This document shows, piece after piece, positions 45,001 to 51,000 of a DNA stretch of 64,000 nucleotides; position 1 is the first letter of the stretch; every line of letters begins with the position of its first letter. A program made the position numbers. The stretch comes from Gemmatimonadota bacterium (GTDB lineage Bacteria > Gemmatimonadota > Gemmatimonadetes > Palauibacterales > KS3-K002). The stretch covers positions 32,001 through 96,000 of the forward strand of contig JBDHJS010000002.1 of NCBI GenBank assembly GCA_039586795.1, in the 5' to 3' direction.

Positions 45001-48000
45001 TCTATTTCTGACCGCTGTCCCTCGGTCAGTGTCAGTTCTTCCGCGAGCCAGTCGATGTAGCTGCGCCGCTGGTCTCGATCGCCGTCTCGTCGGTCTCGGT
45101 TCTCTACGGTCCCGCGATTGCTGACGAACATTCGGTCGATCGCCGCACCCGCTACGCCGCCCATCAGCAGCACGACGAGCAACAGGGTCAGCGCCCACGC
45201 TTTAGACTTCCCAATCATTGTCCTTCACCTGAATCGTCGGGAACGCGTCCACCGTTCCCATTCTGGAGAAGAGCCGCCGCCATCACCGCATCGGTGTCCG
45301 GCTCGTTAATAGCTACCAACAAAGCAGGAACATCACCCGCCTCACCGGAGGCGAGCACGTCCTCGAGAGTGACCGGCTGAATCTCCGACGACCGGTCGGG
45401 TCCGAATTGAAGCGCCGCCGCGAACACGAGTAGCGCGACGCTCGCCGCCACGAGACCCGGTCGGGCCCACGCCGCCAGAATCTCGAATGACGTCGCCGGG
45501 CGAGCACGTCGTTCCAGCAACGGCTCGGCCGCCGCCAGGATGCGCGCCTGCGCCGCCTGGCGCTGTGCTTCCGAGCGGTTCGGCGCCCTCAGCGCATCGA
45601 GCCCTTCGATCGGCTGGTTTTCGTGTTCTGGGGCCATCATTTCACCTCTTCGATTACCGTTGGTACTCCTTCAGCGCCTCTCTCAGCATCCGGCGGGCGC
45701 GGGAGAGGTGTGACCGGCACGTCCCCTCCGGGATGCCGAGCACTTTTGCGATCTCGGGGTGCGTGAAACCCTCCAGGTCATGGAGGACCACCACCGTCTC
45801 GAGATCATCGGGCAGCGAGCTCACCGCTGCGGCCAAACGGCCGCGCAACTCCGCCCGCTCCGTATCGACCGCCGGGCTGTCAGGCCCTGAGGCCGACGCC
45901 GGCACGTCCTCGGTGCGCCGGCGGGCCAGGTACTTCCGTCGGTTGAGCGCCGCGTTCACCAGTAGCCGGTAGAACCACGGCCCGAAGTTGCTGCCCCGAC
46001 CCAGCTTGTCGATCCGCTCCAGCGCCCGGATGAACGCATCCTGGACCAGGTCCTCGGAGTCCTCGGCGTGCTGGAGAAACCCATAGGCGACGGCGAAAGC
46101 CTGCTCGGAATAGCGATCCACGAGGATGCCAAAGGCCTCCCGGTCACCCCGGCGCACGCGCTCGACGAGCAGCGGCTCGTCGATGACCGGAGTCTGGCCC
46201 TCACCCGTGGCGTCCATCGCCCTCGCAGTGCTAACACTTGAGCGGCTGGGAGCGTTGGCCCGTTCCGGGCCGCCACTCCGGTTGCCTGGTTTGACGAAAA
46301 GTCTAGCTTGAAGGATATGGCAACGCAGCCTACAGGCCACCCCCGGGCCCGGGATGACGTGATGTTTCGTCAGGTGGACGATGAGTGGGTTGTGTTCGAT
46401 CCAGCTGCGAACGACCTCCACGTCCTCAACCTCTCCGCGGCCCTGATCTGGAGCCACCTGACCGGCGACTGTTCGGAGGCAGACATCGCTGCCGCCGTTC
46501 AGGAGGCCTTTGGCATCGAGCCGCAGCAGGCGGAATCCGACGTTCGGGAGGCGCTAGGGCGGTTCCGAAGCGCCGGGCTGTTGGCCGGCGACGCCTGAGA
46601 CCGTCCGCCGAACCGGGCGATGAGCACCCACGATTATCGCGATTTCTTGTCCGACGCCCCCCGCGTCGATGCTTACCGGCGTGCGATACAGTCCACCGTG
46701 AAGCCGGGCGACGTCGTGCTCGACGTGGGAACGGGGATCGGGACGTACGCGATGTTCGCGGCACGGGCGGGCGCCAGGGTCCTGGCCGTCGAGATGGATC
46801 CGGTGATCGATACCGCCCGGGAGCTTGCGGCGGAGAACGGCCTCGACGACCGCATCGTCTTCCTGCGAGGTCGCGTCGAGGAGCTCGAGCCACCGGAGCC
46901 GGCCGACGTTCTGATCTTCGAGGACTTCTCCCCCTTTCTCTATCACTCGGATACGTCGCGCCTGCTCGATCGGGTGGCCAGCCGTTGGCTCAAGTCGTCG
47001 GCGACGTCGATTCCCCGATCGCTGAGGGCGATCACAGCGCCGGTCAGCTGCCCGACCGCGTACGGCGCAATCGCGCCATGGGGAGACGGAAAGGCGTTCG
47101 GGCTCGATGTCGGCCGGTTTTCGCGACAACTCTTCAACGAGTTACATCCGGTTGTATTCGACCCCAAGGTCATCCTGGCTGACCCTCTGGAAGCGGGCCG
47201 CGTCGAGCTGCCGTCCGCCGATCCGTTCGGCCTGGACGTGTCGGTCGGCTGGCAGGCGGATCGGGAGGCGGAGCTGCACGGTCTCGGGCTTTGGATCGAT
47301 CTCGAGCTGGCAGAAGGTGTGACATTCTCCAACGCCCCGAGGGGCCTTTCCACCGGCTGGGATCAGCGCCTACTGCCTCTGGCTGAGCCGATTGAAGTCC
47401 TGGCCGGCGATGCTATCGAGGCGCAGGTTCGGACGATGGGCCCCGCTCCTCGGGAACCGGAGTGGTGGAGTTGGCGGGTATCGGCCGGTGGCCGGACGCA
47501 AGAGATGAACACGTTCAAAGGCCTACCGTTGTCGAAGGCACAACTGCGACAGGCTGGAGTAGATCGACGGCCGAACCTCGGCGCCCGCGGCAAGATCCGA
47601 CTCGCGGTTCTGGAACTCATGGATGGGCGCCATTCAGTCGCCCAGATCGCTGGGGAGCTGAGGGAACGTTTTCCGGATCTGCTGAGTACCGATGCAGAGG
47701 CCTTGCGCGCGGTTGCGCGGGAGATAAGGCTCAACGAGGATCCCGCCTCCACCCAGGCGCGCGACACGCCAGGAACGAGCACGGAAAGATGAACCACGAA
47801 GATCCGACACGCCGGGAGTTTCTTCTCAAGATCGCCCGTGGCGCGGTCTATAGCGCGCCGCTGATCGCGACGTTTGCCGTGGCTCCGGATCTGCTGGCAC
47901 AGGCAGGCTCGGCGCCCGGCCACCATCACATGCACGCGGCCCCATCGGCGCCCCAGCAGACCACGACTCCGTCCGACGCGCCCGGCGCTTCGCCGACGGA

Positions 48001-51000
48001 GAAGCATCCGCCGCCGAGCAGGAAAGGCGAGGGCGGCTAGGCGCCGCGTTCGGTGTCCGACCCGGCGACTCTCCTCTATCGCTTTCCCGGCGCCGAGCGG
48101 ATCGTCTCCGCCCGCGTCGCGCCGACCGAGTTCATTCCCCTCATAGACGATTTCTATGCTGCCTATCGCTGTCGCTTATCTGACAGCGAGCTGCCGGTCG
48201 ATCAGGTGATCGAGCTGGAGTACGATGGCGGTGTGTACCGGGTAACGGTCCCCAGTGGCGATTGGGAAGCGGAGTCCGAGGGAGACGCCGTCCTGTTCTA
48301 CGAATACGAGCTGACCGATGCGCTGCTAACAGGCGCCGACGAGTTCGTTAATCTGCATGGTACCGCAGTCGTTCGTGAGTCGCGCTCGATGCTGCTGTTG
48401 GGTCCGTCAGGCACCGGGAAATCGACACTCGCCCTGGCCCTATCGCTGGCGGGTTGGCAAACGATCGCCGATGACGCGCTGCTGATCGACCCGGGGACGG
48501 GTGAGGTCCAACCGTTCGACCGGTCAATCCGCGTCCACGAGTCTAGCTTGCGGGCGCTAGATGTTGATCACGCCACCATCGAAGGGGCCCGATTCTGTGA
48601 ACCGTACCTGTGGCTGAAGGTGCCCGAATCCGGCGCACCCGGTTTGCTCAACCCGGATGCCCTGGTGTTTCTGCGGTCCGGAGCGGCGACCTCGATAGAG
48701 CGGCTGGACGTCACAAACACCCTGAGGGAACTGTTGATCGCGCGCCTGAGCGACCAGAGCGAGCGCGACTTCGATTGTCTGGCGCGTCTTGCAGCAGAGG
48801 TGCCGGGCTATCTACTGAGCTTCGAGGGCTTCCCGGAAGCGCTGGCGGAGCTAGAGTCGCTCTGACCCGTAAGCATCGGACCAGAGGTCAGCGTTCTCCA
48901 TCACCCGCACCCTGTAGACGCTCACGCCTTCGGGCAACCGCGCCTCGACCTTTTCAAGGATGAAGGCCGCCAGGTTCTCTGTGGTCGGCATCCGACCGCC
49001 AGGGCCGAACTCGGGGATCTCGGAGTTGATGTCCCGGCCATGGAGTGGGATGACTTCGGCCCCTAGGATCTTGTCGAGCGCCCCGAGGTCGATGACCATC
49101 CCGCTCTTCTCATCGATCGCGCCCTGGACGGTAACCTCGCAGCGATAGTCGTGGGCGTGGGTCTCCGCCAAAGCGCCGAAGCGCCGGCGGTTCTCCTCTT
49201 CGCTCCAGTCAGAACGATGGTAGTGATGCGACGCGGTGAAACGGACCGCTCGCGTAAGAAAGCCCAATGGCATGGTTCCCAATCCCTGAATCCCTCTGAA
49301 AGCCTCGATATCTTTGACTGGGCCCGGTAAGTTAGGCACTCATGAAAGAGCCAGCCACCGCCGGGAAGCTGCCGAGACAAGCTAAGTTCGTCGATCTCAG
49401 CGACTACGCCCGTCCGCTCGCCGCGTGGATCGCCCGGCGTCTGCGCGATACGAGGATCACCGCTCCCCATGTAACTCTGGTCTGGGTCGTGCTCGGATTG
49501 GGCGCCGCTGCGTGTTACGGCTTGGGTGGCTTCGGCCTGGCTCTAACCGGCGCGGTGCTCATGCAGGTGAAGAACATCCTTGATGCCGTGGATGGGTCCC
49601 TCGCCAGGCTCCAGGCCAGGCCATCGCGAATCGGGCGCTTCCTCGACTCGATCGGCGACGCGTTCATCGCGGCGGCCATCGCCGCGGCGCTCGGCGTGGC
49701 TGTCGCTCGTGGACGGCCGCTGGCGCTCGCTGTCTCGCTGGCCGTGGCGGCACTGGTGTTCGGACTGCTGCAGGGCTCCGTCTTCAACTACTACTACGTT
49801 TGCTACCGGGTGCGTCAGGGCGGCGATACGACCAGCCGGGTCAAAGAAGCGCTGACCGAGAGCGATGCGATGCACTACGACGGTCGACCGGGGGCGCTCG
49901 CGCTGCTACGCGTGCTGATCGCCGCGTACAACTGGATCTATGGCTGGCAGGATTTGGTCGTTCACCGCATCGACGAATGGGCTGTCCGACCGCTCACCTC
50001 AGAAGGCCGCGGCGAGGAAGCGGATGCGCTGCGGGACGATCGGCGATTCCTCACGGCCGTCAGTTTGCTTGGCCCGGGCGTCCAAATTCTACTGCTCAAT
50101 CTGCTTACCGTTGCGGGCTACTGGAACCTGGGGGCGATGCTGGAGCTGTTTCTCTGGATCGTAGCGGCCGGCGGCACGTCTTACGCCGCGGCCCTCATGC
50201 TGCTGCTCAGAATCAGAACTAAGCGCGCGGCCCGATTACCGGCCGCAACCGTTTGAGTTAGATTCCGCCCATGCCAAATACAAATCTCGAGTCGCTGCGA
50301 TCGATTTTCGAGCCACGCTCAATCGCGGTAGTCGGCGCCAGCCGACGTCATCAGACCATAGGATACGTTATTCTCGACAGCCTGCTTCGCGACGGTTTCA
50401 CAGGTGCGGTCTACCCCGTGAACCCGAAGAGCGAAGTCGTGCATTCGATGCGGGCCTATCCTTCGATCGCCGAGGTACCGGAGAAGGTGGATCTCGCCGT
50501 GATCGTCGTGCCGAAGGAGCTGGTGCTGGCGGTAGCCGAGGAGTGCGGCGCGGCGGGTGTGAAGGGGCTGGTGGTCATTTCGGCGGGCTTCCGGGAGATC
50601 GGCGGCGAGGGTGTGGGGCGCGAGAAGGCGTTGACGGACGTCGCCCGCAAGTACGGGATGCGCTTGGTGGGACCCAACTGCATGGGCGTGCTGAACACCG
50701 ACCCGGCCATCGCGATGAACGCCACGTTTGCTCCCACGGCGCCGCCGACGGGGAACGTCGCGTTCCTCAGTCAGTCGGGCGCGATTGGTGTCACGATCCT
50801 CGACTACGCCCGGGAATACGGTATCGGCGTCAGCAAGTTCATCAGCCTGGGTAACAAGGCCGATATCTCCGGCAACGACGTCCTCGAGTACTTAAAAGAT
50901 GACGACAGTACTTCCGTCATCCTGATGTATCTGGAGAGCTTCGGTAACCCTCGGCATTTCACCCGCATCGCGCGAGAGGTGACGCAGGTGAAGCCGGTTG

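Follow-up and report, generated by a model that had tools for sequence, protein, structure and literature searches.

Four conserved genes in a 64,000-nt stretch of a Gemmatimonadota genome (the window, within which all coordinates below are positions) are predicted, as the most likely reading, to phosphorylate and methylate a small peptide. Sequence and genomic context show that the four genes form one unit and that the peptide co-occurs with the RRE and the kinase. The pathway is probably similar to that of the recently described linear polyphosphorylated peptides (LPPs), and would make a linear, phosphorylated and methylated peptide that is exported.

Organisation and distribution of the cassette

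The cassette opens with a stand-alone RRE of the PqqD family (93 aa; 46317..46598, + strand), followed on the same strand by a PRMT-fold SAM-dependent methyltransferase (390 aa; 46620..47792), an 83-aa precursor peptide gene (47789..48040) and an HPr-kinase-like peptide kinase (270 aa; 48053..48865). An ATGA overlap joins the end of the methyltransferase gene to the start of the peptide gene. The genome-wide survey's note had begun the RRE at 46362, an internal methionine; the family alignment and a GAAGGA site place its start at 46317. Its description of a conserved four-gene cassette with an 83-aa precursor is upheld: the order RRE-methyltransferase-peptide-kinase is kept in 9/9 relatives with the methyltransferase (40 relatives searched). 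Among 15 family loci drawn from a contig search, a set that overlaps with these relatives, 13 keep it (the survey counted 14), the remaining two, which share one record title, being cut by contig ends. Also confirmed were the lack of a cyclase or peptidase (cyclase or B2 peptidase in 0/36 loci) and the presence of related cassettes in Longimicrobiales loci; those that the survey listed for KSB1, Poribacteria and Pseudomonadota did not turn up, in searches not aimed at them.

Purifying selection acts on the peptide: over 12 genes, dN/dS was 0.09 in the leader and 0.21 across the first 10 codons of the core. The peptide was found in 17 of 401 genomes of the phylum, all 17 with this RRE type (E < 3e-20); some of the genomes in this count had also contributed sequences to the RRE and precursor alignments, and kin among them are not independent. 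Three further genomes at E < 3e-20 combine the RRE and kinase with a divergent, Cys-rich twin-arginine peptide, and in two others (G023 and G009) the peptide and the other cassette genes were lost together at the same site. The genome encodes no second peptide of this kind and no PqqD besides the cassette RRE. A cluster look-up with 10 distant precursors returned no taxa.

No sigma-70 promoter-like site or terminator stood above chance at the locus, and the fraction of words present in six RNA-type runs was 0.05-0.11. Short contigs from four of these runs, with 0-1 differences, cover the methyltransferase gene and the peptide gene in part; such contigs cannot show transcription.

Predicted leader recognition and phosphorylation

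The RRE matches PF05402 above cut-off (E 2.7e-15) and, as previously reported, passes TIGR04353 (48.7 against a cut-off of 35), while TIGR04352 is the best model for the kinase, a likeness to the HPr-rel-A families of NCBIfam. However, the kinase falls below the TIGR04352 cut-off (60.9 versus 200), as the survey had stated, and these models name neither the precursor nor the methyltransferase. The top PDB match of the RRE alignment was LppB (9x8z; E 1.1e-05), and the RRE retains N38 and D75, equivalent to the LppB residues that hold the leader Pro and Tyr (PMC13381572). A predicted complex of the RRE with precursor residues 1-48 scored 0.55 against 0.01 for the best control, with a partner pLDDT of at least 62 and at least 90% of contacts common to runs, and lends weak support to binding. 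The mark for this score was reached by 116/157 solved complexes and 2/215 mismatches, and at scores of 0.60 or under by 18 solved complexes and both mismatches; because solved RRE-leader complexes exist, the pass may reflect likeness to them.

The leader (precursor residues 1-37; 47789..47899, +) carries a twin-arginine motif (R8-R9-x-F-L-x-K), and its RRE box, Y21-x-x-P24-x-I26, sits within a stretch free of charged residues. A predicted signal-peptidase-like cut at A37|Q38 puts Y(-17), P(-14) and I(-12) in the register of lasso precursors and BsfA. The predicted core, Q38-G83 (47900..48037, +), contains S41 (codon 47909-47911), a His/Met patch (H45-H49) and a Pro-rich tail with the subfamily motif P-S/T-D/E-K-H-P. 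Among the invariant residues listed by the survey, G40, S41, P43, H45 and H73-S77 are invariant in a narrow subfamily only; across 32 alignment rows the invariant positions are M1, R8, R9, F11, L12, A16, Y21, P24 and P69.

The RRE would very probably bind the leader box and hand the precursor to the kinase, which in turn would very probably (poly)phosphorylate S41. By analogy with Ser3 of LppA and BsfA, S41 is the predicted phospho-site, and the serine phosphorylation suggested by the survey is likely as a predicted activity. Ser or Thr lies within core positions 2-6 in 241/264 precursors and in all 47 of the subfamily. S41 itself is at +4, not at +3 as in LppA and BsfA. The kinase residues H102, G117/G120/G122/K123/S124 and D140-D141 have spacing identical to the BsfK catalytic motif, which is intact in 15/15 aligned kinases; comparison of the kinase with PDB sequences gave no informative match.

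Of 20 related cassettes, 15 include a PF14907 nucleotidyltransferase, which that of the window lacks. The single PF14907 gene above cut-off in the genome, which might supply this activity in trans, lies on another contig (C49) within a nucleotide-sugar cluster, and has counterparts in 10/10 cassette-bearing genomes, nine of them in one clade, as well as in G023, which has no cassette. At E < 1e-5 this gene had no BLAST match among the nucleotidyltransferases of the cassettes, and a quick tree puts it outside their clade, on a long branch.

The survey's view that the cassette fits no described RiPP class was overstated. LPPs, made by the LppA/K/B/S/D/N system of Paenibacillus alginolyticus, are linear, cyclase-free products of an RRE and an HprK kinase; they have a leader with YxxP, are cut in the manner of a signal peptidase, are phosphorylated at core Ser3, and are said to be restricted to Bacillota (PMC13381572). 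Shared with them are the stand-alone RRE, a kinase of HprK type with intact motif, the lack of a macrolactam cyclase (0/36 loci), YxxP some 16-17 residues before the cut, a conserved N-terminus with a variable core, a Ser near the core start, the predicted signal-peptidase-type cleavage and, in the related cassettes, the nucleotidyltransferase. The Gemmatimonadota cassette differs in having no dedicated LppS peptidase or MsbA-like LppD transporter and, in the window copy, no nucleotidyltransferase, in the twin-arginine motif and hydrophobic stretch of its leader, in the added PRMT-fold methyltransferase and in its host phylum. The LPP consensus YxxPxVLxHQxIxFETxxS is not reproduced, only YxxPx[VIL] and a downstream Ser being common to both. 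Linear phosphorylated ribosomal peptides would thus extend beyond Bacillota.

Phosphorylated lasso peptides provide a second comparison: BsfA/BsfK/BsfB1 (PMC10368454), paeninodin (PadeK/ThcoK) and pseudomycoidin (PsmK/PsmN; PMC8498205, PMC9266682). The RRE-assisted phosphorylation of BsfA at core Ser3 persists without the YxxPxL residues (PMC10368454), a point that, like the +4 position of S41, weighs against the proposed scheme. The kinase motif H-G-G-G-K-S-D-D, with identical spacing, and the leader register Y(-17), P(-14), L/I(-12) are shared. In contrast, the cassette encodes neither a B2 peptidase nor a cyclase, its precursor lacks Thr/Ile(-2) and a ring-closing acid, and its product is predicted to be linear; Asp/Glu at core positions 7-9 and Thr(-2), features of lasso peptides, are missing from the precursor.

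The PRMT-fold enzyme and its possible methyl acceptor

All 53 PDB sequences matching the methyltransferase at E<=1e-12 are PRMTs, as the survey had found, and its model has the full PRMT fold (294 aligned at Z 30.4 and rmsd 2.8; the 15 highest matches are all PRMTs, the next one having Z 12.4). The likeness to eukaryotic PRMT1/3/4/6 covers the Rossmann and beta-barrel domains, both present in the model, over ~295 residues, together with the SAM motif, the SAM-binding residues and the first Glu of the double-E loop. That this Glu (E101) is kept and the second replaced, as stated earlier, was borne out. The enzyme differs from these PRMTs in having lost the His of the THW loop and the N-terminal YxxY helix, both PRMT motifs, and in its added three-helix module. 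The THW His occurs in 0/52 cassette enzymes versus 3/4 stand-alone bacterial PRMTs (sequence register); the second-Glu position is E/D in few of the 52 and E in 4/4 stand-alone enzymes, and at position 6 the cassette enzymes have Tyr or Phe in place of the PRMT His, which all four retain. An additional acid, D102, is invariant in 35/35 twin-arginine-type enzymes. Residues of the PRMT arginine pocket have been lost. The methyltransferase is missing from some cassettes (G302, G107), and is hence dispensable there.

The C-terminal module (~residues 322-372; 47583..47735, +) had been described as the enzyme's own RRE. Residues 329-367 do match PqqD models, weakly; however, the module consists of three helices without a beta-sheet and is missing from 7/20 related enzymes. 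Both models contain helices alone, and the profile match, at 66%, lies over helices. In structure the module comes closest to PqqD (51 aligned, Z 5.7, rmsd 2.5) and TfuB1 (57 aligned, Z 5.3, rmsd 2.7), which tie with unrelated helical domains, and Foldseek returned nothing for it at E<=0.001. As modelled, it is a dispensable three-helix remnant akin to the helix-forming half of an RRE.

Bacterial PRMT-type enzymes, held to be the origin of eukaryotic PRMTs, are placed in NRPS-type operons in PMC3417536, as opposed to the RRE cassette here. A literature search, with most subscription papers outside its reach, found no characterised bacterial PRMT-fold enzyme in an RRE pathway, and the ESM Atlas gave only unnamed or PrmA-labelled clusters.

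The PRMT-fold enzyme would methylate the precursor in the cytoplasm, on an acceptor other than arginine. The His methylation proposed by the survey is possible for this copy and its subfamily (His in 45/47) and is not general; His as a family-wide acceptor was rejected, the whole core being without His in 117/264 precursors. His, Lys and Met interchange across family cores, and in 45/264 the first 15 residues of the core include none of His, Lys and Arg. Our leading, if tentative, candidate is a side chain in the His/Lys/Met patch that follows the Ser (His or Lys here); the backbone, Gln or another group is a distinctly weaker one, the phosphoryl group is somewhat less likely again, and Arg is improbable.

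Proposed export and rival explanations

The leader seems, from its residue pattern, to double as enzyme docking site and secretion signal. Among 264 unique precursors, 260 have RR, 243 Ala/Gly at -1, 247 Pro at -6/-5 and 198 Gln at +1, counts inflated because the set was gathered by profile and regex. An uncharged-stretch rule for Tat signals is passed by 213/264 precursors (47/47 in the subfamily) and failed by 51. Leader hydrophobicity is 1.87, and 15 RRxF proteins of the same genome span 1.19-2.37. The pattern P-x(2-4)-[AG]-Q occurs at 264/3941 N-termini versus 50/3327 internal windows of the genome (~4.5-fold enrichment). Tat HMM matches were weak (TIGR01409 in 6/32 at E>=0.014, below cut-off), and the signal is atypical, with extra Lys/Arg past the motif, a Pro within the h-region and an acidic c-region. 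TatC and LepB genes are present in the genome; searched with the two S26 proteins of the genome, the cassette loci yielded no signal peptidase. It is not obvious why a disordered peptide should need Tat, which counts against export by this route. In the reviews checked the term Tat occurs in other senses alone.

The leader would nonetheless serve as a Tat signal, with housekeeping signal peptidase I cutting A37|Q38 after export and freeing a 46-residue peptide. Together these steps would account for the missing peptidase and transporter genes, and suggest that host Tat and signal peptidase are borrowed in place of dedicated genes. Speculatively, the His/Met-rich product might bind metal in the periplasm, tuned by its modifications. 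An extended version, in which a working Tat leader holds the RRE box in its h-region, the RRE delays export until modification is complete, the PRMT-fold enzyme is remodelled for a non-arginine group (His/Lys/Met or phosphoserine phosphate) and an exported metal-binding peptide bears an unprecedented modification, is as a whole rather unlikely.

The same chemistry could act on a peptide that stays cytoplasmic or is otherwise processed, the twin-arginine helix being an enzyme-docking element. The RR-to-Y spacing, fixed at 13 in 139/139 and 133/135 sequences, would be consistent with docking, signal peptides usually tolerating looser spacing, as would the charged residues on either side of the h-region and the weak Tat HMM scores. 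The near-universal RR followed by F-L, the enriched signal-peptidase-like c-region and the lack of a transporter or peptidase in the cassette argue the other way, and we consider this reading unlikely. An ordinary Tat-exported peptide, with the enzymes acting on another substrate, is very unlikely: the Tat-like signal and weak complex prediction would fit, but the survey's suggestion is contradicted by the presence of this RRE type in every peptide-bearing genome, translational coupling to the methyltransferase, the co-loss in two genomes, and the genome's having one such peptide and one PqqD.

Genuine arginine methylation, either of the leader twin arginines to gate export or of C-terminal Arg-Gly motifs, would agree with the complete PRMT fold and E101, with D102 as a possible replacement for the second Glu, and with Arg somewhere in the core of 110/139 precursors. 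The altered second-Glu, THW and position-6 residues and the rarity of Arg within the first 15 core residues (2/47 subfamily peptides) make this quite improbable. Least probable, to the point of being hardly credible, is a decayed lasso cluster or a lasso fragment completed in trans. Sister methyltransferases do occur in full lasso clusters (cyclase in 15/17 loci, the other two cut by contig ends; quick tree), and the genome has several asparagine-synthetase-like genes; against this stand the absence of a B2 peptidase above cut-off in the genome, of Thr(-2) and of an acid at core 7-9, as well as strong purifying selection and stable gene order. The LPP-like pathway would offer a directly testable, four-gene bacterial PRMT-fold system with its substrate encoded next door, and given the family's presence in complete lasso clusters, one assay would annotate both groups.

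The cassette and its distribution

The four-gene feature is real. On the forward strand, in window coordinates, which the survey's finding also uses, an RRE gene (46317-46598) is followed by the methyltransferase gene (46620-47792), the 83-codon precursor gene (47789-48040) and finally the kinase gene (48053-48865). The stop codon of the methyltransferase gene and the ATG of the precursor gene overlap. The RRE start was set at 46317 because relatives and a ribosome-binding-like site place it there; the start at 46362 in the genome-wide survey's note is an internal Met. Each gene is present once in this genome, which holds a single PqqD-family gene and in which no lasso B2 peptidase passes the cut-off. 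The cassette is flanked by a divergent ECF sigma factor gene upstream and a convergent PTPS-family gene downstream. The upstream block on the opposite strand (39752-46226: ECF sigma factor, two small proteins, HlyD-type adaptor, MacB-type permeases; dnaN adjoins) is kept in genomes with or without the cassette.

The methyltransferase was found in 9 of 40 related genomes, with the same four-gene order in all nine, and the named relatives are Gemmatimonadota, including Ca. Kutchimonas denitrificans. Of the 15 family loci from genome_contigs, 13 are whole and the remaining two run into contig ends, where the survey counted 14 and one. In two genomes (G023 and G009), the site between the sigma factor and PTPS genes holds none of the four genes, which therefore come or go together. 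Purifying selection acts on the peptide gene: over 12 genes, dN/dS is 0.09 in the leader and 0.21 in the core head.

The survey had allowed that the small protein might be an ordinary Tat-exported peptide. Its profile matches 17 of 401 phylum genomes, all 17 of which encode a cassette-type RRE at E<3e-20 (16 of 16 without G132, which is flagged unpublished and on which nothing else depends). Only three more genomes reach that level, while a further 14 pass the 1e-12 cut-off of the search. These three carry the RRE, kinase and a divergent Cys-rich twin-arginine peptide. Since the profiles were partly built from the counted genomes and kin are dependent, this co-occurrence is a pattern, not a statistical test. 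The methyltransferase profile (E<=1e-40) matches 14 of the 17; the others are G191, with the gene split across short contigs, G302, where it is absent at the cassette locus, and G132. The peptide belongs with the cassette enzymes, and its constant association with the RRE argues against an ordinary exported peptide.

Leader, predicted cleavage site and probable phosphorylation

Precursors were pooled from the best 120 of 244 and best 150 of 204 search matches plus locus peptides; removal of six without the motif, duplicates, those over 160 aa and those with cores under 8 aa left 264, and motif counts over this set are inflated by the collection method. Conservation is far higher in the leader than in the core: RR occurs in 260/264, at a fixed spacing of 13 residues from an aromatic-x-x-P box. 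Around the predicted cut, 247 precursors carry Pro at -6/-5, 243 a small residue (Ala/Gly) at -1 and 198 a Gln at +1. Two independent clues agree on the boundary A37|Q38. This cut puts Y21, P24 and I26 at -17, -14 and -12, the register reported for the BsfA lasso precursor (PMC10368454), and in this genome P-x(2-4)-[AG]-Q shows an enrichment of about 4.5-fold at N-termini (264/3941) over protein interiors (50/3327), as expected of a signal-peptidase site.

A rule for Tat signals, 13 uncharged residues within the 22 after RR, is followed by 213 of the 264 precursors and all 47 of the narrow subfamily. Precursor hydrophobicity lies inside the range of 15 of the 16 RRxF proteins found in the same genome, which also has genes for TatC and signal peptidase I at other sites; the weak Tat HMM scores and atypically charged signal speak against a Tat reading. 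A second S26 signal-peptidase-like gene lies at a contig end (G000:C77:3-578; the main LepB is on C96), and no link between it and the cassette was found. A second precursor gene occurs in some genomes, either in tandem with the first or on another contig (L087:8286-8810, L181, L147, L144/L145); the cores of the two differ, and one is almost purely Met-Gly.

The best PDB match of the RRE alignment was LppB, then TfuB1, and RRE N38 and D75 are the counterparts of LppB N33 and D70, which are described as fixing the leader Pro and Tyr (PMC13381572). Complex prediction weakly suggests that the RRE may bind the precursor (residues 1-48): the score was 0.55, against 0.01 for the best control, with a partner pLDDT of 62 or more and 90% or more of contacts shared between runs. 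The mark was reached by 116/157 solved complexes and 2/215 mismatches, but only 18 of these solved complexes and both mismatches fell at or below 0.60, and similar complexes are already solved. In the kinase, H102, G117, G120, G122, K123, S124, D140 and D141 have spacing identical to the BsfK motif (PMC10368454), which all 15 of the kinases aligned retain intact. Ser/Thr occurs at core positions 2-6 in 241/264 precursors and, by analogy with the core Ser3 reported as phosphorylated in LppA (PMC13381572) and BsfA (PMC10368454), S41 is the predicted site. A Ser/Thr seven residues past the leader Tyr is kept more often than any core residue (258/264; here T28, 47870-47872); it may be phosphorylated as well, or serve in docking. 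In one locus (L238, G250:C1:4317092-4320355), three RRE-containing genes of ~175-180 aa stand in tandem after a kinase gene.

A remodelled PRMT-fold methyltransferase

The structural model (pLDDT 88.8) matches PRMTs over the whole Rossmann and barrel core, with Z 30.4 and rmsd 2.8 over 294 aligned residues; PRMTs fill the first 15 places, and the next match has Z 12.4. SAM-binding residues are retained, and so is E101, the first Glu of the double-E loop, as the survey stated for this Glu. On sequence, the arginine pocket is not kept: few of the 52 cassette enzymes have an acid at the second-Glu position, and none has the THW His, at positions taken from the alignment with PRMTs. Of four stand-alone bacterial PRMTs aligned with them, all four have the second Glu and three have this His. 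E101-D102 is common to 35 of 35 twin-arginine-type enzymes, which form one branch (support 99; quick tree of 36 rows including one duplicate). Outside any RRE cassette there are stand-alone bacterial PRMT-like genes (L090, L091, L093, L094) in which the second Glu is present and, for the most part, the THW loop too. The C-terminal module that the survey called the enzyme's own RRE is three helices without a sheet, is absent from 7 of 20 related enzymes, and is therefore at most accessory.

His methylation, proposed earlier, fits the subfamily, with His in 45/47 cores, but not the whole family, where it is absent from 117/264. His, Lys and Met interchange just after the Ser, at least one of them occurring within the first 15 core residues in 250/264. 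The enzyme may therefore be a side-chain methylase that tolerates different residues, or it may act on something that every core shares, such as the phosphate. His and Met make up 19% of these 15 residues but 4% of the proteome. Metal-binding sequences, too, typically exchange His and Met.

Relation to linear and lasso peptide pathways

Among described systems, the linear polyphosphorylated peptide (LPP) family comes closest; it is reported to combine an RRE, HprK kinase and NTP transferase with a YxxP leader, signal-peptidase-type cleavage and Ser3 polyphosphorylation, without a cyclase (PMC13381572). The cassette probably works in the manner of this pathway but falls outside the family on LppS, transporter and leader consensus; the survey's claim that it fits no described RiPP class is too strong. 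The main text of the LPP paper makes no mention of methylation, Tat or Gemmatimonadota. Known lasso methyltransferases, in passages of two reviews, are carboxyl O-methyltransferases and PIMT homologues (PMC8498205, PMC9266682), and peptide-metabolite operons with bacterial PRMT relatives are on record (PMC3417536). Our searches, with most subscription papers outside them, found no relevant literature combining PRMT/arginine methyltransferase with PqqD, lasso or RiPP, or twin-arginine with RRE. Most likely, though with moderate confidence, the cassette encodes an LPP-like pathway to a linear phosphorylated, methylated peptide whose leader would also act as a Tat signal. The proposed Tat coupling of the leader and the remodelling of the PRMT-fold enzyme are what most deserves experimental study.

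Twenty related twin-arginine cassettes hold the kinase, RRE and methyltransferase, with a PF14907 nucleotidyltransferase in 15. As the survey had it for the cassette, no cyclase or B2 peptidase occurs in these 20 or in the 16 family loci, nor was a signal-peptidase gene matched there. In a sister group of 17 loci, the same methyltransferase family lies inside lasso clusters (cyclase in 15; two cut by contig ends). Because related cassettes add PF14907 and the sister loci are lasso clusters, the cassette is a reduced member of a lasso-related toolkit, "reduced" implying no direction of descent. The lasso loci, all Gemmatimonadota (L065-L071, L073-L076, L079, L081, L083, L085, L096, L097), contain cyclase, RRE, kinase, PF14907 and often B2 and an ABC transporter; their precursors are of lasso type, with an Asp as core residue 9 or 10 and tails of Lys/Arg-Ser/Thr, and their methyltransferases replace the first Glu by Asp (17/17). 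An orphan PF14907 gene inside a nucleotide-sugar cluster (G000:C49:79520-80641; L102:7521-8642), present in 10 of 10 cassette-bearing genomes and in G023, is a possible partner in trans.

Variant loci were also observed. At the ECF sigma-to-PTPS site of G302 (L146:4028-7098), the methyltransferase is missing, and the RRE, kinase and twin-arginine precursor are accompanied by a pair of HTTM-domain membrane proteins. L246:7146-11105 (G107), L247 and L248 combine an RRE and a kinase with a Cys-rich twin-arginine peptide in which Trp replaces Tyr, adjoining a Wzc-like polysaccharide kinase gene, with no methyltransferase in the flanks read. In the pair L056:7309-8748 and L177:6202-8739, one cassette has a group II intron reverse transcriptase just upstream and the other locus has a methyltransferase match interrupted by ~2.5 kb. 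A planctomycete locus (Planctomycetota, Blastopirellula; L060:8295-11146) encodes a divergent twin-arginine peptide, RRE, kinase and a methyltransferase of the same clade.
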